Below are positions 33,437-58,886 of a stretch of 64,000 nucleotides of DNA, in pieces (positions within the stretch are counted from its first letter, which is position 1; every line of letters starts with the position of its first letter). The position numbers and the translations under genes are program-made. The notes beneath the pieces are model-generated. The model ran no database searches. It had not been told where the DNA came from and saw only the letters and a list, made by a program, of their open reading frames with translations. Source of the stretch: a virus (Duplodnaviria > Caudoviricetes); IMG/VR virus record IMGVR_UViG_2885358051_000002, positions 1 to 64,000 of that record; one strand, written 5' to 3'.

Positions 33437-33991
33437 TCATTTTTTCATAAAACATATCCAATGGGTATTACTCCTTTTACCAGAAATATGTCCAAATACA
33501 GGCTTTTCTGATGTCAGTTTCAGAACTTCGGAAACTTTGATGTCTGTTTCATTCCATTTGAATATGAGAAATCCACCGTGCATCAGAACTCTGAAACATT
33601 CATTGAAACCCTTGGACAACATATCGCGCCAATCTGAATACAATGCACCATATTTGATATGCTGATACCCTTTTGGTGTTGCTTTCTCATTAAGACTGCC
33701 ATATATGTCAGCAAATTTTGAATTGCCGACGTTTCGCAACAGATGGGGGGGGTCAAAAACAACCATTGAAAAGTGTTCGTCTTCATACGGCATATTTGTG
33801 AAGTCTGCCTGAATATCAGGATCTACTTCAAATGTTCGTCCATCACACAACGTCGTTTCAAAACTGCGAATGTCTTGAAATAGCACCCTATCGTCGTTCT
33901 TGTCGAAGTAGAACATTTTTCCACCACAACAAGCATCAAGAATTGGCGAAGTATCTGTTTTGTTTATTTCTTTATGGTTTCTCATTGACAA
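33437..33991 (-). CDS. Phage amino (N6A/N4C-type) DNA methyltransferase
   Basis: ILDACCGGKMF SAM-binding motif and VVFDPPHL catalytic motif. Confidence 0.8.
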   Translation of the reverse strand: MSMRNHKEINKTDTSPILDACCGGKMFYFDKNDDRVLFQDIRSFETTLCDGRTFEVDPDIQADFTNMPYEDEHFSMVVFDPPHLLRNVGNSKFADIYGSLNEKATPKGYQHIKYGALYSDWRDMLSKGFNECFRVLMHGGFLIFKWNETDIKVSEVLKLTSEKPVFGHISGKRSNTHWICFMKK

Positions 33992-34565
33992 AATCCATTT
34001 GAGACAATTTATTATATAGAATCTTTACCGAAAGACGCGCATTGTCCGAAAGCACCAGTTTGTCAGGAGAGATATAAGCATCTAATGCGTCACGGAGCGA
34101 ATCGAGAGTAGGGTTAGGCGCACAATCATGGTGTCCGCATCGCTCCATTATCAGCTCATCCATTTTCCGATTATGCTCCTTGAGTAATTCCAGCATCATA
34201 TATCCGCACAAGGCTTCGGTACGCATATCCTGATAAGGTGCATTCGGAAGAAGACGACGTATGTCGTTATTCATTGAGCACCACAGCACGGTAAAGTCAT
34301 TTGCCGCTACCTTCAGAAATTTCTGCGATAGGGTAGAAATGCGCTTAATACCCATGTCATCCAAATTCTTTCTGAGTAGTTCATCATACCTTTTATACAG
34401 GACACCTACGGTGCGTGAAAGTTTTTTAAGCACCTCTATACGGTATTTTGCTGCCAGTTCCGTGGTACGAACCGCATACTGCCATGCTATGTCCGCTATT
34501 ACCAATGGTCCCAATGCCATAAAGTAATTCTCCTGTTTGGTAAAAACCTTCAAGCGTTGTTCCAC
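33972..34565 (-). CDS. Helical phage protein whose reading frame extends up to a C11 tract
   Basis: Frame stays open to the poly-C at 34605-34615 (…CSEEVFRQQVRQSVEQRLK). Confidence 0.6.
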   Translation of the reverse strand: MEQRLKVFTKQENYFMALGPLVIADIAWQYAVRTTELAAKYRIEVLKKLSRTVGVLYKRYDELLRKNLDDMGIKRISTLSQKFLKVAANDFTVLWCSMNNDIRRLLPNAPYQDMRTEALCGYMMLELLKEHNRKMDELIMERCGHHDCAPNPTLDSLRDALDAYISPDKLVLSDNARLSVKILYNKLSQMDFVNEKP

Positions 34566-35520
34566 GCTTTGCCGTACCTGCTGGCGAAAGACCTCCTCCG
34601 AGCAGGGGGGGGGGGCGCATCAATGCCGACTGTAACGGAACCGATGGATTCTTGTCAGATACGGATAGGACAGACTGACAGATAGGTTTGGCCGTTTGTG
34701 TGGTAGTACGGTCATCAGGAATAGTACTGTGCATATCATCCGGCCTGTTCTCCTTATAGAAACGGTTGATAGATTTCTTCCATCGAACTATTACACCATG
34801 TTTTAGTGAAAGTTCCGTCACCTTATCTATGAAACGGTCGCACTGTGTCCAGTCGTATCGACGAGGCGAGTAAGGAGAGAGCAATCCGATACGCAGTTCA
34901 CGCACAAAAAGCATTATGTCAATAATACAACTTAGAGAATCATTGAAGTCAATGACCGGTTCGATGGAAGCGAAAACGGAGAACTGCATCTCATGCAGCC
35001 GAGAAATAGCCTTTATGCGCTCCTGAGTAGAAGGGGCACCAGGTTCCATTTCATCATGTCCGGTCAGTGTGAAACCAATGTGAAGCAAATGGCGATAGGC
35101 ATATAGAGAGCCAATATACACATCTTTATACAGCCAATTCACAGCCTTGGTAAGTATATATACCGGAACACCCTGAGATAGTGCATAATCTATGCACGTC
35201 ATTGACAGATCCGTTGTCTGCGGAAGAAACGGGTCAGAAGAGAAAGAGAAGAACAAACCGCCATCCTCAATAATCCGCGTGCGATACTTATCCAGTTCCT
35301 TGCGGAAGATACGGACGGCCGACCACTCATCACCCAACGTAGATTTCAGTACCGCGTGCGGTCCACCCAAAGTATGAGCCATCGGTCCACGTTTGCAATA
35401 GCAATACGAGCAATTATGGTCACAACCCTTGTAAAGGTTACATGCCCATAGGGAATACTCCTCAGCCGCGCCTGCTGGTTGGTAGATAGCCTTACCCTTT
35501 ATACGAGATGTTTCTTTCAT
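34426..35520 (-). CDS. Radical SAM protein
   Basis: CNLYKGCDHNCSYCYC (CxxxCxxC), FSFSSDPF and ASIEPVI; the tail beyond the C11 tract looks out of frame. Confidence 0.85.
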   Translation of the reverse strand: MKETSRIKGKAIYQPAGAAEEYSLWACNLYKGCDHNCSYCYCKRGPMAHTLGGPHAVLKSTLGDEWSAVRIFRKELDKYRTRIIEDGGLFFSFSSDPFLPQTTDLSMTCIDYALSQGVPVYILTKAVNWLYKDVYIGSLYAYRHLLHIGFTLTGHDEMEPGAPSTQERIKAISRLHEMQFSVFASIEPVIDFNDSLSCIIDIMLFVRELRIGLLSPYSPRRYDWTQCDRFIDKVTELSLKHGVIVRWKKSINRFYKENRPDDMHSTIPDDRTTTQTAKPICQSVLSVSDKNPSVPLQSALMRPPPLLGGGLSPAGTAKRGTTLEGFYQTGELLYGIGTIGNSGHSMAVCGSYHGTGSKIPYRGA

Positions 35521-54170: not shown

Positions 54171-54379
54171 TCAAAAAAAGTATTCAAAAAAGACTACCGT
54201 CTTCGGAAAATGAGCCAAAGATATAATATCCGATGCTGCCAAATACTCATAACGAGTATTCAGCGTGCAAGCTACTCCACCGTCCGCAGTATTGACAGGA
54301 ACAATTTGCCCCCCCGAACAAACTTCGGAGAAGCGGAGGACGTGATGAAAAGTTTTAGGCAAGACGAATTACATTTCAT
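54171..54379 (-). CDS. TRD-like cassette 10, frameshifted at G7 (G8 restores frame)
   Basis: Corrected: MKCNSSCLKLFITSSASPKFVRGGQIVPVNTADGGVACTLNTRYEYLAASDIISLAHFPKTVVFFEYFF; tract 54309-54315. Confidence 0.7.
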
Positions 54380-54553
54380 GTTCTACAACTATATAGTGCA
54401 TATTTCTATAAAATACTCCAGCAAGAAGTGTAGATGCTACCCCCCCATAGAACGCATATTATACAAATCCAGGAACTCTGCATGATGTGTCGGAGTCCAA
54501 CCCTTCTGTATGAGTTGTGTCAAGTTCTTATTATTCGCAGCCATAATCATCAT
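54369..54553 (-). CDS. TRD-like cassette 9, frameshifted at G7 (G8 restores frame)
   Basis: Corrected: MMIMAANNKNLTQLIQKGWTPTHHAEFLDLYNMRSMGGVASTLLAGVFYRNMHYIVVEHEM; tract 54440-54446. Confidence 0.7.
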
Positions 54554-54712
54554 ACTCTACCAATAAACACATAGGACATCTATAGTCCGATGTACGTAAA
54601 CAAGGACAAACAGGCTTCCACATAGGATGGTCAATCCCCCCCCCCCATGTCGCCATTCAAAGAAATGCCCCCAAATGTGCGGAGCACATTTATAGCCAGA
54701 TACTATCATCAT
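54531..54712 (-). CDS. TRD-like cassette 8, frameshifted at G11 (G12 or G9 restores frame)
   Basis: Corrected: MMIVSGYKCAPHIWGHFFEWRHGGGGIDHPMWKPVCPCLRTSDYRCPMCLLVEYDDYGCE; tract 54636-54646. Confidence 0.65.
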
Positions 54713-54850
54713 ATTCAATCAATATACCGGCATCCTGCATGTTGGCGCGGATGGTACGAGACAAGTTCCACAACGGACCACGGTTGAAATCCGGTGTACA
54801 TTGACAATATACCCCCCCATTCGATATGGTAACGGAGTAGATGCCATCAT
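54690..54850 (-). CDS. TRD-like cassette 7, frameshifted at G7 (G8 restores frame)
   Basis: Corrected: MMASTPLPYRMGGVYCQCTPDFNRGPLWNLSRTIRANMQDAGILIEYDDSIWL; tract 54812-54818. Confidence 0.7.
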
Positions 54851-55059
54851 TAAAGCAAACGTTCTATCCATAAAAGGTTATCTTTTTGAACTGATGTAAT
54901 TGTATTTGTAAACTTCTCGGAGCCCAATTCAATAACCTGATGAAAACGACGATCAGCATGAGCGCCGCGAAACGAAAGGTTGTCGAGATCACGATTGACA
55001 GAAGTTGCAATACGAACACCTGCAGAAGATTCTTCGGGGTATCGGTCATAGATATACAT
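54850..55059 (-). CDS. TRD-like cassette 6 (open, no G tract)
   Basis: Ends FTNTITSVQKDNLLWIERLL; frame is open further upstream (CACRGR) to ~55127. Confidence 0.7.
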   Translation of the reverse strand: MYIYDRYPEESSAGVRIATSVNRDLDNLSFRGAHADRRFHQVIELGSEKFTNTITSVQKDNLLWIERLL

Positions 55060-55124
55060 ATTATCTTTACATCTGCCACGACACGCACAAATGCAGACAT
55101 AAGTAATACGTGCCGTTGGGGATT

Positions 55125-55325
55125 TTAATTAGTATCATACTCAACAAGAATAAGATTATCCTTCAAGACAGAAGTTATCGTGTTGGAGTACGAAGACAGG
55201 GAAGGAAGCAACTGCCGGTCAGAAAATCGACAAAAGCCCCCCCTATCACCATGTATGCGTCGCAAAAGACGAGCGTGTTCCGTGCGAACCGGAATAAGGA
55301 CAGAAAAACACCTAACACAATCCAT
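55125..55325 (-). CDS. TRD-like cassette 5 (G7 tract in frame)
   Basis: IPVRTEHARLLRRIHGDRGGF...SNTITSVLKDNLILVEY; tract 55237-55243; start overlaps the MTase stop. Confidence 0.75.
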   Translation of the reverse strand: MDCVRCFSVLIPVRTEHARLLRRIHGDRGGFCRFSDRQLLPSLSSYSNTITSVLKDNLILVEYDTN

Positions 55326-56460
55326 GCTCCTTGCGAAATGCAGCTATCTCATCATCAGACAACTTATGATCCGTATAAACGTAGATGATGTGAGCAGATT
55401 TATCTGCCTCGTTTGTCTGAAGAAACTTGATGACACTATCCGGTTTAAGGAAATAAGATTCGTCCACCTCTTCATCCAGTACATCAGCAATACATTTCAA
55501 CAACTTGAAAGATTTTGGGAAACGATAAACAGGAAGACCGAGGTCACGACGGACGGACAACATGAAAACTCGCTCACGGTTTTGCGGAACTCCATAGTCC
55601 TTAGCGTTGAGTATAGCCCAATAGTTATCATATCCACAATCACTGCACACCTGCTGCCAGGCACGGAAATCATCAATGTTCACCTCATTAACCAATGCAC
55701 GCACATTCTCTTGAAGCAAGAACTTCGGGTGCAAAGCACGGATGGCTTCCTCTGTGTACCACAAAATAGAAGAACGAGTACCAGAGCCTTTCTTAAGGCC
55801 TGCACGCTTGCCAGCCTGACTGATACTCTGACAAGGTGTAGAATAAGTGAGCATGTCAATGTCATCCTCTCCCTGTTCCTTGAGATGCTTACAGAAAGAA
55901 TGCCAATCAATCTTCGTCATATCGCCGAGATTGCGGTCTTTCCATTGCGGGAAGAGCAAATTATGCGCTACCACAGCCGGCTGCCGTTCGAGAGGGACAT
56001 TCGCTTTTTCCGGGTCAAATTCAGACCATGCCATCAACTCATAAGAAACGGTGTGCCCACCCTGGTTCGCGGCATCCACTAACTGCTGCATAGCAATAGC
56101 TTGCGAGTCATAACCGGAACAAAGCGTGACAAGCCTTATTTTGGATGGCAACGGAGCACGGAATGTAGGGTCAGGAAACAAATTATAGGCATCATCGGGG
56201 TCATCCTCCGTCAGCCAAATGTTGCGAAAGATATAGTAAAGGCAAGAGACCACAATACTGTTTCCTGCCAACTTGTATATAGACGAGCGGGAAAGAGAAG
56301 AATCCTCACACATAGTAATGATGTCAGGCTCTGGTACATCCATCAGACGCAGGCACTCACGTTCAGTAAGTTTGCGAATGTCAAAATACCGGACAGGATG
56401 AGATGGGTCACGCTTTCCCTGTAAGTCAGGATGATTATCCGGGTATATTTTTGCAATCAT
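55312..56460 (-). CDS. Circularly permuted cytosine-C5 DNA methyltransferase core (IX-X-I...VIII) lacking a TRD
   Basis: N-terminal IRKLTERECLRLM (IX) and YKLAGNSIVV (X), then LCSGYDS (I), TPCQ (IV), ENV (VI) and QNRERVF (VIII). Confidence 0.92.
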   Translation of the reverse strand: MIAKIYPDNHPDLQGKRDPSHPVRYFDIRKLTERECLRLMDVPEPDIITMCEDSSLSRSSIYKLAGNSIVVSCLYYIFRNIWLTEDDPDDAYNLFPDPTFRAPLPSKIRLVTLCSGYDSQAIAMQQLVDAANQGGHTVSYELMAWSEFDPEKANVPLERQPAVVAHNLLFPQWKDRNLGDMTKIDWHSFCKHLKEQGEDDIDMLTYSTPCQSISQAGKRAGLKKGSGTRSSILWYTEEAIRALHPKFLLQENVRALVNEVNIDDFRAWQQVCSDCGYDNYWAILNAKDYGVPQNRERVFMLSVRRDLGLPVYRFPKSFKLLKCIADVLDEEVDESYFLKPDSVIKFLQTNEADKSAHIIYVYTDHKLSDDEIAAFRKEHGLC

Positions 56461-56494
56461 TTTTTTATTCTTTTATATCAAAAATCTATTCAAA

Positions 56495-56681
56495 TTATAA
56501 CTCATATTCATAAAGGACAACAGTCATAGGATAATGAGCCATTGAAATGATATTGCCACTTCCTATGGCTTCATAACGGGTTGTAAGCGTAGCCGAACAA
56601 CCATCCGCTGTGGTATTGCAAGGTGTGATTTTACCCCCCGAAGAAGCGTGTAGTTCCTATATAAGTAATACTAAAAATCAT
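56495..56681 (-). CDS. TRD-like cassette 4, frameshifted at G6 (G5 or G8 restores frame)
   Basis: Corrected: MIFSITYIGTTRFFGGKITPCNTTADGCSATLTTRYEAIGSGNIISMAHYPMTVVLYEYEL; tract 56634-56639. Confidence 0.7.
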
Positions 56682-56848
56682 ATTCAATCATAACTGCGGT
56701 TGCAAAAAAACCATTTCCTTTTGCAAACAAAAAGTTATAGACTCCCATTTTATAGTAATTCGCTTTAATGGTACGTACATTTTTCCCCCCCCCCATCTGC
56801 ATTAAGGACAAATAATCTCTTAATGTTACGGTATCTTGCCCAAATCAT
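56671..56848 (-). CDS. TRD-like cassette 3, frameshifted at G10 (G9 restores frame)
   Basis: Corrected: MIWARYRNIKRLFVLNADGGGKNVRTIKANYYKMGVYNFLFAKGNGFFATAVMIEYDF; tract 56785-56794. Confidence 0.72.
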
Positions 56849-57090
56849 TGAGGTGTTATTTCTTCGATGGTCACAGTATATCCTTCACCCTCTTCCGTCC
56901 GCCATTCTTTGCACCGAGGCAAATCTATCAACGTGTCGCCACATTGCTCATTGAATGTTCCCCTGCAATCAGCAAGTTCTTTTTCAAAAGCCCTCATTAC
57001 ATCATCCAGAGAGATGAAAAGATTATGTCTATCCGAAACATTTTCATGTGTTTCAAGGAGTGTCGCAAGAAGATAAAATTTCTGTTTCAT
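56845..57090 (-). CDS. Hypothetical protein inside the cassette array
   Basis: Probable ATG at 57090 (MKQKF); coupled to cassettes on both sides. Confidence 0.55.
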   Translation of the reverse strand: MKQKFYLLATLLETHENVSDRHNLFISLDDVMRAFEKELADCRGTFNEQCGDTLIDLPRCKEWRTEEGEGYTVTIEEITPQ

Positions 57091-57222
57091 TGTATTCAAT
57101 TAAAATTTTCGGTTTATCCATGTCATGTCCTTTACCCCCCCAGCCAAGCATAGTGCGATGCCGATGGGAGAAACTACGATGCCGTTCTGCGAAGGAGAAT
57201 AGTAACCAAGAATTACCGGCAT
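57053..57222 (-). CDS. TRD-like cassette 2, frameshifted at G7 (G8 restores frame)
   Basis: Corrected: MPVILGYYSPSQNGIVVSPIGIALCLAGGGKGHDMDKPKILIEYNETEILSSCDTP; tract 57135-57141. Confidence 0.72.
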
Positions 57223-57224
57223 GT

Positions 57225-57581
57225 TCACAGGCGATTGGACTGGCTTGCGGACCATACGAGGTTTTTATAATGATTATTGGAGCGATTACCATCCTTGTGC
57301 AGCACATGCGGGAGATTATCATCGTTGCGGACAAAAGACATGGCCACCAAACGGTGAACCTTAAAGTTCTTTCCCTGAATGCGAACGCGCCGATACCCCT
57401 TTCCATTGAAAGAGGCAATAGGACGAAAGTCCTGAAAAAACCTTGCAGCATCCATGTCGTAATAGCACAACGGCGAAGAACAGCCTGCACTGACCGTTCG
57501 GGAGGAATAAACCTCCCCACTGTCAGAAATGAAATAAGAGGTCCGGCCAACCTCATAGAATTTTCTCACTCTACAATTCAT
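57225..57581 (-). CDS. HNH (NUMOD4/HNH_3-type) homing endonuclease
   Basis: KVHRLVAMSFVRNDDNLPHVLHKDGNRSNNHYKNLVW. Confidence 0.85.
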   Translation of the reverse strand: MNCRVRKFYEVGRTSYFISDSGEVYSSRTVSAGCSSPLCYYDMDAARFFQDFRPIASFNGKGYRRVRIQGKNFKVHRLVAMSFVRNDDNLPHVLHKDGNRSNNHYKNLVWSASQSNRL

Positions 57582-57754
57582 GTTCTATCAATATGTATGG
57601 TGTAGTATTATACATGTCCGTATTCTTGTCCTTGCATATACCCCCCCCCGGAGAATGAGGTAATGGTGTTGCATATATGTTTGAAGTGATAACGCAACAC
57701 CGTCCCCCGTTTTTCTCCGGAGCGAGTCCACCCTATGAAATGACAGTCATTCAT
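57571..57754 (-). CDS. TRD-like cassette 1, frameshifted at G9 (G8 restores frame)
   Basis: Corrected: MNDCHFIGWTRSGEKRGTVLRYHFKHICNTITSFSGGGICKDKNTDMYNTTPYILIEHEL; tract 57641-57649; start overlaps the dnaN stop. Confidence 0.72.
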
Positions 57755-58886
57755 CAATGCGCATGGGCATTATCAATTCTATCAGTGAAGAATTGGTAGC
57801 ATCCTCACGAACAGTCACTGCACGTTCAGGAGCAGACAATTCGAGACGAACATTATCCGTAGAGACGACAGAAAGAACCGTCAGGAAGTGACTCGAACGA
57901 AGACCAATAGCAAATCCGTCAGGAAGCGTACAATCATCAGAAGACAGGTCTTCGCGGGCCTTGCGTGAAAAGTCCACATCCTCGGCACAGAGAGAAACAG
58001 CACCATCCTGTTTGCGTATAGACACAATCTGTGTGGCAGAATTAGACATAAGGGACACGCGCTTGAGTGCATTTACAAGGTCACGCACCGGCATGACAAG
58101 ATGGTAAGGCGACTGTGCAGGAATGACCGAGTTGTAGTTCGGATATTTTCCCACTACATCCGTCACATAAAGTGTGGTGTCATCAGCCGAAATGATCAGT
58201 TTCTTACCATCATGCCGCAAAGACACCATTTCCACATTTGCGAAGGCGGCATCAATCGCAGGAACAGCCTTTTTATATAATAGGATAAGACACGGTTTAC
58301 CATTTGTAACAAACGGAATCCCATTCGTATAAACATACTTATAAAGCATGTGCCCGGATGTGGCAACAAAAGTAACCCCCTCGTTTGACACATCAAGCGC
58401 CACGGCACTCAGTTGTGGGCGCAAATCATCATCGGCTGTACAGGCAGATGCGGCCTTGACCGAAGGCAGAAAGACCGACAGAGGCAAAGAAAACTCAACC
58501 GTGGTGTTCTCCTGCTCAACTGGCAGAGGAAAGTCTGCACCATTAAAAGCCGGAACAGAGAAGTCACCACCCTTGTAACGAAACGAAGCAAGAAAAGAGG
58601 TGTCATCTATTATCATTTCTACAGGCTGCTCCGGAAGCGTAGCCAAAATGGGTGAAACCATTGCCACTGGGAGGCAGAAAGGGCGAAAAACACCATTGTC
58701 CATGCGACGCAAGTCTATCGGCATTGTCAGTGTATTTTCGGATGACGAACCCGTAATGAAAAACTTATCATCCTTGAAAGACACCAGCGCATTGTCAAGC
58801 AAAGGGAGCGTGTTTCGCTTGAGGATGACCTTAGAAACCGTGCTCAGCGCACGTAAAAGTTCTTTGGAAGAAACAGAAAATTTCAT
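57747..58886 (-). CDS. dnaN: DNA polymerase III beta sliding clamp
   Basis: 379 aa; NTLPLLDN, DDLRPQL, VATSGHML, GKYPNYNSVIP and ELIMPMR. Confidence 0.92.
   Translation of the reverse strand: MKFSVSSKELLRALSTVSKVILKRNTLPLLDNALVSFKDDKFFITGSSSENTLTMPIDLRRMDNGVFRPFCLPVAMVSPILATLPEQPVEMIIDDTSFLASFRYKGGDFSVPAFNGADFPLPVEQENTTVEFSLPLSVFLPSVKAASACTADDDLRPQLSAVALDVSNEGVTFVATSGHMLYKYVYTNGIPFVTNGKPCLILLYKKAVPAIDAAFANVEMVSLRHDGKKLIISADDTTLYVTDVVGKYPNYNSVIPAQSPYHLVMPVRDLVNALKRVSLMSNSATQIVSIRKQDGAVSLCAEDVDFSRKAREDLSSDDCTLPDGFAIGLRSSHFLTVLSVVSTDNVRLELSAPERAVTVREDATNSSLIELIMPMRIDE

Follow-up and report, generated by a model that had tools for sequence, protein, structure and literature searches.

Several Bacillus phages were already known to encode multispecific C5-cytosine methyltransferases (M.SPRI, M.Phi3TI, M.Rho11sI and M.H2I), in which one catalytic scaffold serves several target-recognition domain (TRD) modules of about 40-60 aa (Wilke et al., 1988; Lange et al., 1991; both cited in PMC8936443). 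Each module is thought to give one target sequence, and an anti-restriction role is presumed. In these enzymes the TRDs are tandem parts of one polypeptide, lie between motifs VIII and IX, and are always expressed. In addition, the two-polypeptide enzymes M.AquI and M.EcoHK31I, along with fragment complementation of split C5-methyltransferases, show that the fold tolerates non-covalent reconstitution from chains broken in the variable region (PMC3404938). Those enzymes have two fixed chains and one specificity, the TRD is never a free peptide chosen from a library, and there are no repeats. Natural circularly permuted enzymes (M.BssHII, M.Alw26I, M2.Eco31I, M.Esp3I and M2.BsaI) place motifs IX-X before I-VIII with the permutation point in the variable region, and they keep the TRD in the same chain (PMC5944983).

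Phase-variable Type III mod and Type I hsdS genes (phasevarions, e.g. M.NgoAV poly-G; PMC9577141), as well as poly-G tracts in phages (Fletchervirus receptor-binding genes, a BPP-1 methylase gene and T-even contingency loci; bioRxiv 10.1101/2025.10.21.683753), are switched ON or OFF by homopolymer slippage in a coding region. Tract lengths differ between near-identical genomes, methyltransferases are frequent targets, and known cases switch a whole enzyme or one of two domains of an S subunit. In Type I restriction-modification systems, specificity is carried by a separate polypeptide (HsdS) that joins a common catalytic subunit, and populations vary it by recombination in shufflon or inverton variants (PMC7672463). 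However, this enzyme class is unrelated (N6-adenine, multi-subunit), and we found nothing comparable described for C5-methyltransferases.

We examined a 64-kb stretch of DNA (hereafter the window) from a phage of about 90 kb. On its minus strand, between 54171 and 57754, lies a C5-cytosine methyltransferase core with the permuted motif order, in which motifs IV (PCQ), VI (ENV) and VIII (QNRER) are readable. This core starts after the TRD and ends before it. Specifically, its alignment to M.HhaI falls into two segments that leave out the stretch equivalent to M.HhaI residues ~214-270. The core is flanked by ten overlapping minigenes, or cassettes, of 58-69 aa and about ten families, and nine of the cassettes carry their own coding-strand G run (Table 1). 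Thus, the modules that are tandem parts of one chain in the Bacillus phage enzymes are here separate genes on both sides of a permuted core, and nine independent switches each gate one module of a single C5 enzyme. No paper describing this layout was found.

Table 1. Features of the methyltransferase locus, listed in coding order. All are on the minus strand. L numbers denote related loci and X numbers denote isolates used for comparison; ON and OFF mean in frame and out of frame.
Feature	Coordinates	G run	State	Observations
Cassette C1 (60 aa when in frame)	57571..57754	G9, 57641-57649	OFF, needs G8 or G11	Homologous to the N-terminal fused module of the L004-L007 core ORFs (E 5e-10) and to the L040 C-terminus; L162 orthologue ON at G8; X4 has G11 (ON)
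HNH_3 endonuclease gene inside the array	57225..57581			Pfam PF13392; PHROG HNH endonuclease E 9e-24; also present in L002
Cassette C2	57053..57255	G7, 57135-57141	OFF, needs G8	Orthologues with G8 are ON (L002, L164, L165, L168); family profile hits the TRD region of PF00145 proteins; dN/dS 0.13
Orphan ORF inside the chain (81 aa)	56845..57090			Not TRD-like; function unknown; no Pfam or PHROG family and no homologue in the loci retrieved
Cassette C3	56671..56848	G10, 56785-56794	Long form OFF, needs G9/12; short form open (56671-56811)	X1 and X3 have G11
Cassette C4	56495..56681	G6, 56634-56639	OFF, needs G5 or G8	34 intact homologues; L162 and L164 ON; L165, L168 and L169 OFF
C5-cytosine methyltransferase core (382 aa), motifs IX-X, then I, IV, VI, VIII, without the central TRD	55312..56460			PF00145 E 3.5e-44; residues 194-343 align to M.HhaI 65-213 and residues 28-82 to M.HhaI 271-319
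Cassette C5 (66 aa)	55125..55325	G7, 55237-55243	ON	ATG overlaps the last codons of the core; matches the module fused in front of motif IX in the L064/L067 C-part ORFs (E 1.4e-5); orthologues mostly OFF, L165 ON
Cassette C6 (69 aa)	54850..55059	none	ON	Orthologues in L002, L163, L164, L166, L168 and L170; related to modules in L077 and L066
Cassette C7	54690..54871	G7, 54812-54818	OFF, needs G8	Matches the TRD module at residues 357-388 of L066 (E 5e-4); L162 ON at G8
Cassette C8	54531..54712	G11, 54636-54646	Long form OFF, needs G9/12; shorter form open (54531-56656 region, 54531-54656)	X3 has G12 (ON); X5 has G9 (ON); the X4 contig breaks at the tract
Cassette C9	54369..54553	G7, 54440-54446	OFF, needs G8 or G11	X5 has G11 (ON); L170 at G8 ON; L164 and L168 at G9 OFF; tract-free L167 ON
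Cassette C10	54171..54379	G7, 54309-54315	Long form OFF, needs G8; TTG-start form open (54171-54362)	28 intact homologues

All nine runs listed in the first-pass annotation of this sequence were found at the positions given there, appearing as C runs on the plus strand. They comprise 9 of the 12 runs of C≥6 in the window (binomial P 1e-9), and they include 8 of the 52 runs of G/C≥7 in the whole 2.95-Mb assembly (P 3e-15). When each tract was set to its nearest in-frame length, frame analysis gave ten ATG-to-stop cassettes. As that annotation had claimed, eight cassettes are exactly one base out of frame and only C5 and C6 are open at full length. The T-I/L or C-L core and the hydrophobic-E-Y/H ends that it described are also present. 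One correction is needed, in that shorter forms with alternative starts are open for C3, C8 and C10. Each cassette has its own ATG and stop (mostly TAA), in differing frames, and each start ATG lies inside the last codons of the preceding gene, giving one coupled chain from the clamp gene to C10.

To determine whether the cassettes correspond to TRDs, we searched for homologues of each. Single cassettes hit nothing in Pfam, PHROGs or PDB sequences. In contrast, a profile of the C2 type found 209 clusters among 1.84 billion representatives, with library-wide E values of 1e-9 to 1e-5 for full-length PF00145 enzymes. All ten long hits tested are PF00145, and the match lies between motifs VIII and IX. 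Furthermore, C1, C5, C6 and C7 match modules fused next to motif IX or VIII in related enzymes, including the single-chain multi-TRD enzyme of locus L066. TRD homology is therefore shown for C1, C2, C5, C6 and C7.

The existence of single-chain multi-TRD relatives (L066, P0123 and P0124), coupled with the eight out-of-frame cassettes in the window, could suggest that the cassettes are decaying remnants of a once continuous enzyme and that the core is an orphan fragment. This explanation is very unlikely. The only lesion in each OFF cassette is at the G run, and every window cassette has intact stand-alone homologues that span both sides of the tract. The dN/dS ratio has a median of 0.13, so OFF copies are not decaying; the C2 cassette of the window (OFF) compared with that of L002 (ON) gives dN 0.09 and a saturated dS of 1.8. 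Moreover, the relative L006 has no G runs and keeps five intact overlapping minigenes, plus a C1-type module fused in frame before motif IX (TRD-IX-X-I-VIII, matching the permuted M.BssHII class). Another relative, L070, shows the order N-part, about 17 cassettes, C-part. These findings indicate that the cassettes are free-standing genes under purifying selection.

Modules fused to either end of the catalytic parts in relatives (L006, L040, L064 and L078), the short conserved ends shared by the cassettes, and the HNH endonuclease within the array leave some room for a different role. The cassettes might be a silent donor library from which recombination or gene conversion moves one module into an expressed site fused to the core, as in pilin-type antigenic variation. 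We consider this improbable, because each cassette has its own start codon overlapping the previous stop and an in-frame stop, and because the core in the window has no fused module to be replaced. No recombinase or flanking repeats were seen, and clonal isolates differ by tract length, not by rearrangement, with no joints found.

Comparison of assembled contigs revealed that the tracts are hypervariable. Isolates X1, X3 and X4 have no substitutions over 5 kb and differ only at the tracts at 56785, 54636 and 57641, and two of those changes switch a cassette ON. These three isolates come from one study and may include the source of the window. The break in the X4 contig at the G11 tract is only a weak hint of heterogeneity within one population, which contigs alone do not show. 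Orthologous tracts likewise vary across contigs of related phages, where cassettes are ON or OFF according to tract length alone, while all G5 runs and an in-frame G7 inside the core (17 of 17 loci) stay constant. Among 114 classifiable tracts, G8 is mostly ON, whereas G7 and G9 are mostly OFF. In the C2 family, frame breaks go with uninterrupted runs (7 of 11 against 2 of 29; Fisher P 5e-4). In some relatives a tenth switch sits in the core (L170).

Because long G runs are error-prone on several platforms, and the tracts that differ between the isolates are the longest ones (G9-G11), we considered whether the frameshifts are errors of sequencing or assembly in a genome whose cassettes are all in frame. 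This possibility is remote. G7 runs are called consistently, as the constant G7 of the core in 17 independent contigs demonstrates, and no indels occur at A/T runs. OFF states need +1 in some tracts and -1 in others, the runs are confined to one strand and one locus, and the same pattern recurs in hundreds of independent assemblies.

A further possibility is that slippage during transcription or translation, rather than heritable DNA change, is the working mechanism. In this case every cassette would be made at a low level from out-of-frame DNA, and the G runs would tune dosage rather than act as ON/OFF switches. Homopolymer runs can be sites of RNA-polymerase slippage (see PMC5009743), and most cassettes are out of frame in most assemblies (59% of 114 tracts), which would be wasteful if OFF meant fully silent. 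However, DNA length itself varies between clonal isolates and relatives, in-frame lengths dominate at G8, and some lineages replace the run by interrupted Gly codons and are then always in frame. This pattern is what selection on the DNA reading frame would produce. Although the two mechanisms can coexist, we regard slippage in expression as an unlikely main mechanism.

Taken with moderate confidence, these data are best explained by a multi-piece, multispecific C5-cytosine DNA methyltransferase of a phage of rodent-gut Bacteroidales. Both ends of the catalytic scaffold fall in the small, DNA-reading domain, whose recognition loops are missing, and a module peptide is proposed to complete this domain non-covalently and so set the sequence that is methylated. 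Gain or loss of bases by replication slippage would move each of nine modules in or out of frame, such that a phage population would hold many combinations of active specificities, up to 2^9. The phage therefore probably varies which DNA sequences it methylates. This would hedge between hosts whose restriction enzymes are blocked by m5C and hosts that attack methylated DNA. The first-pass annotation had likewise inferred a library of methylation specificities made as separate peptides, each switched by slippage, that lets subpopulations evade host restriction. Its reading is supported, and in the contigs compared we saw neither one in-frame length everywhere, nor one continuous ORF in relatives, nor an absence of TRD similarity. 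However, there is no direct evidence that a free cassette peptide binds the core, and trans assembly, one specificity per cassette and the anti-restriction benefit are inferred. Also, with only two of ten cassettes in frame in the consensus, most of the library is silent in this isolate, and the cis-fused module of L006 makes it unclear how its free modules would compete for the core.

It is somewhat more likely than not that free-standing ~60-aa TRD peptides act as exchangeable specificity subunits for a TRD-less core, as a C5 counterpart of HsdS. Gut phages would use arrays of up to 17 such minigenes, each gated by its own poly-G contingency switch, with some lineages adding a master switch in the core, and would thereby generate combinatorial methylation patterns within a single burst. 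Such a system would be widespread, given more than 500 related loci in IMG/VR and the 209 clusters for one module type. If the peptides work in trans, this would be the first C5-methyltransferase whose specificity is supplied by interchangeable free subunits, and a phage counter-defence whose target range is randomised by nine independent mutational switches. It would help explain how broad-host or persistent gut phages cope with the many restriction systems of Bacteroidales, including those that attack methylated DNA, and would offer a natural toolkit of small, portable recognition modules, falling into conserved families, for programmable cytosine methylation. Gene callers and Pfam/PHROGs currently miss these minigenes and treat the frameshifts as errors or pseudogenes.

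The locus is read on the minus strand and is built around an ORF of 382 aa that encodes a C5-cytosine methyltransferase (PF00145, E 3.5e-44). When aligned to M.HhaI, this protein matches in two pieces whose order is swapped. Specifically, residues 194-343 match HhaI 65-213 (motifs IV-VIII and the start of the variable region), while residues 28-82 match HhaI 271-319 (motifs IX-X). The enzyme is therefore circularly permuted, and it lacks the roughly 57 residues of HhaI (about 214-270) that carry the recognition loops. Four short reading frames lie upstream of this core and six lie downstream. All nine G runs reported in the first-pass annotation are present, and all nine lie on the coding strand. 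These runs represent 9 of the 12 C>=6 runs of the window (P 1e-9), and they include 8 of the 52 G/C>=7 runs in the whole 2.95-Mb assembly (P 3e-15). The contig itself is 90,283 bases long.

Joining the frames on either side of each run yields ten ATG-to-stop cassettes of 58-69 aa (C1 to C10), whose present tract lengths and coding states are listed in the table below. Shorter forms that begin at alternative starts are open for C3, C8 and C10, a feature that the first-pass annotation did not mention. The ATG of each cassette lies within the last codons of the preceding gene, and the Tyr-acidic codon pair at the cassette ends contains the next ATG. The result is one overlapping chain that runs from a sliding-clamp gene through C1, an HNH endonuclease, C2, an orphan 81-aa ORF, C3, C4 and the core, and then from C5 to C10. 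The HNH_3 endonuclease gene sits at the same place in L002, one of the related loci examined, and may be a homing element. The orphan ORF, which is translationally coupled between C2 and C3, has no family and no homologue in related loci, and L002 carries an unrelated 87-aa ORF at the same position. We also considered whether stop-codon reassignment might join the cassettes, but rejected this possibility because most cassette stops are TAA and neighbouring long genes are intact under table 11. Ribosomal read-through into one long protein was rejected for the same reason, and because frames differ between neighbours.

Coordinates and G-run states of features of the locus and of other runs on the same phage contig
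Feature	Coordinates	Strand	Tract now	In-frame length	State
Sliding-clamp gene	57747-58886
Cassette C1	tract 57641-49	-	G9	G8/11	OFF
HNH_3 endonuclease gene	57225-57581	-
Cassette C2		-	G7	G8	OFF
Orphan 81-aa ORF	56845-57090	-
Cassette C3	tract 56785-94	-	G10	G9/12	OFF (long form)
Cassette C4		-	G6	G5/8	OFF
Methyltransferase core	55312-56460	-
Cassette C5		-	G7	G7	ON
Cassette C6		-	none	n/a	ON
Cassette C7		-	G7	G8	OFF
Cassette C8	tract 54636-46	-	G11	G9/12	OFF (long form)
Cassette C9		-	G7	G8	OFF
Cassette C10		-	G7	G8	OFF (long form)
Radical-SAM-like gene	ORF 34426-35520; run 34605-34615	-	C11
197-aa ORF that follows	33972-34565
184-aa ORF with DPPH motif	ORF 33437-33991; run 33745-33752	-	C8	in frame
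Six more G/C runs of 7-10 bases	64227, 71305, 71765, 73607, 73743, 85894

Single cassettes gave no hit in Pfam, PHROGs or PDB sequences, and so homology was tested in other ways. The ESM Atlas gave no usable hit for C5. A profile made from 21 in-frame C2-type cassettes was searched against 1.84 billion representative proteins and found 209 clusters at E<=1e-3, most of them 36-115 aa. All ten longer hits examined are PF00145 enzymes, and in each the match lies between motif VIII and motif IX, with library-wide E-values of 1e-9 to 1e-5. In representative protein P0123, for example, motif VIII is at 182, the match is at 277-311 and motif IX is at 440. Another representative with a C2-like TRD, the 680-aa C5-methyltransferase P0145, also carries Hint/intein domains (PF13403, PF07591) in its N-terminal part. 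In contrast, the C2 profile gave only a chance hit against PDB, a word-indexed search for longer relatives of the C2 cassette found only seven close relatives of 96-144 aa, and hhalign of the profile against the unsplit related locus L056 placed it on the TRD without reaching significance (E 0.05).

Several other cassettes match modules that are joined to catalytic parts within the fetched related loci. C1 matches the first 35 residues of the core ORFs of L004-L007, where the module is fused in frame directly before the region holding motif IX (E 5e-10), and it also matches the C-terminus of the L040 core. Likewise, C5 matches the module fused before motif IX in the C-part ORFs of L064/L067 (E 1.4e-5), and C6 matches a module in L077. 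C7 matches residues 357-388 of L066, a single-chain enzyme with three or four tandem modules between motifs VIII and IX. The cassettes are TRD modules.

The cassettes are also real, free-standing genes. Every window cassette, when read with its tract corrected, has between 11 and 38 intact stand-alone homologues in independent viral contigs, and these homologues cover both sides of the tract. The corrected frames are therefore the biological ones. Relative L006 (core 69% identical, GC 0.40) has no G runs at all, yet it still has five intact overlapping minigenes of the C10/C4, C6, C8 and C2 types after the core. L070 shows the unpermuted version, wherein an N-part ORF (motifs I-VIII) is followed by about 17 G-run cassettes over 3 kb and then by a 92-aa C-part ORF (motifs IX-X). 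Other relatives are unsplit (L056, L043) or have modules fused to one of the catalytic parts, and the core ORFs of the L011-L045 clade (e.g. L018:4968-6266) have a conserved helical C-terminal extension of about 80 aa that is not TRD-like. For the C2 family the median pairwise dN/dS is 0.13, and the window's OFF copy against the ON copy of L002 gives dN 0.09 and dS 1.8. This evidence of selection, together with the confinement of lesions to the tracts, contradicts the view that the cassettes are decaying pseudogenes.

The tracts are hypervariable. A blastn search with the locus against the phage record collection found no match, but Logan contigs of three isolates from one 2018 study (X1, X3 and X4), one or more of which may be the window's source, carry this stretch with no substitutions over 5 kb. 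Their only differences are tract lengths. The C3 tract is G11 in X1 and X3, the C8 tract is G12 in X3, which puts C8 in frame, and the C1 tract is G11 in X4, which puts C1 in frame. The X4 contig breaks at the C8 tract. A 2021 gut metagenome (X5, about 2.5% divergent) has other lengths at five tracts, two of which would switch C8 and C9 ON. A silent donor library for recombination is not supported, because the cassettes have their own starts and stops and no joints appear in the isolates.

No indel occurs at the A7 or T7 runs of the stretch. Furthermore, across IMG/VR contigs, orthologous cassette tracts vary (for example G6/7/7/7/8/9), whereas all G5 runs, and an in-frame G7 inside the core of one clade (17 of 17 loci), are constant. 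Given these internal controls, sequencing error is very unlikely. In the C2 family the Gly-Gly-Gly motif is written in two ways. With interrupted codons, 27 of 29 copies are in frame, whereas as an uninterrupted run G8 is in frame and G7 is out of frame, while the downstream DNA is unchanged (Fisher P 5e-4). Closer relatives from metagenomes (core 73-89% identical) show each of C1, C2, C4, C5, C7 and C9 ON in some contigs and OFF in others, according to tract length alone. Of 114 classifiable tracts in 161 loci, 47 are in frame, 37 need +1 and 30 need -1, with G8 mostly ON and G7 and G9 mostly OFF. Transcriptional or translational slippage may add to this DNA-level switch and cannot be excluded.

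The methyltransferase core itself carries a G7 run in the L002 lineage (for example L164:3471 and L166:748). One metagenome contig, L170, has G8 there (L170:812) and a core split into 180-aa and 261-aa frames, which suggests a master OFF switch in some lineages. The window's core has that run interrupted. X5 shows a +1 at the homologous window position 56055.

The locus thus combines a scaffold that lacks recognition loops, a library of recognition modules encoded as separate conserved genes, and mutable runs that set the frame of each module. We infer that a translated module most likely completes the small domain of the core non-covalently, that each module gives one target sequence, and that the mix of ON modules in a phage population hedges against hosts with different restriction systems. 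Both termini of the permuted core lie in the small domain, and C5-MTases are known to work as two chains and to tolerate both fragment complementation (PMC3404938) and permutation in the variable region (PMC5944983). AlphaFold2 applied to the natural fusion in L006 gave a confident catalytic domain, but the fused cassette (residues 1-52) and both small-domain ends were below pLDDT 50-57, and so the model is uninformative with regard to docking. Adding free C1-type cassettes to deepen the underlying alignment caused them to be misaligned. Keeping most modules OFF may limit competition for the core or may avoid methylation-dependent restriction, although this point is speculation.

The individual components of this arrangement are known, including multispecific phage C5-MTases, two-chain and permuted C5-MTases, and poly-G contingency loci, which also occur in phages (bioRxiv 10.1101/2025.10.21.683753). 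In contrast, an array of free TRD minigenes, each with its own switch, was not found in full-text literature searches, although this is weak evidence of absence since most subscription journals were not covered. In many cases coding-strand G-run clusters lie next to the methyltransferase. Named genome records with relatives are mostly gut Bacteroidales, such as Prevotella sp. MGM2 and a Muribaculaceae isolate, and the sequencing runs holding this phage are rodent and pig gut samples.

Additional homopolymer runs occur elsewhere on the 90-kb phage contig, which holds 16 of the 52 G/C>=7 runs of the whole assembly. A C11 run lies on the coding strand near the 3′ end of a radical-SAM-like gene (PF04055, 24 bits, below the Pfam cutoff), the frame after the run looks unnatural, and a further ORF follows. 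This may be another tract-controlled DNA-modification gene. Similarly, a C8 run lies on the coding strand of an ORF with a weak methyltransferase-domain hit, which may represent a second phase-variable methyltransferase. Six more runs are located beyond the window.
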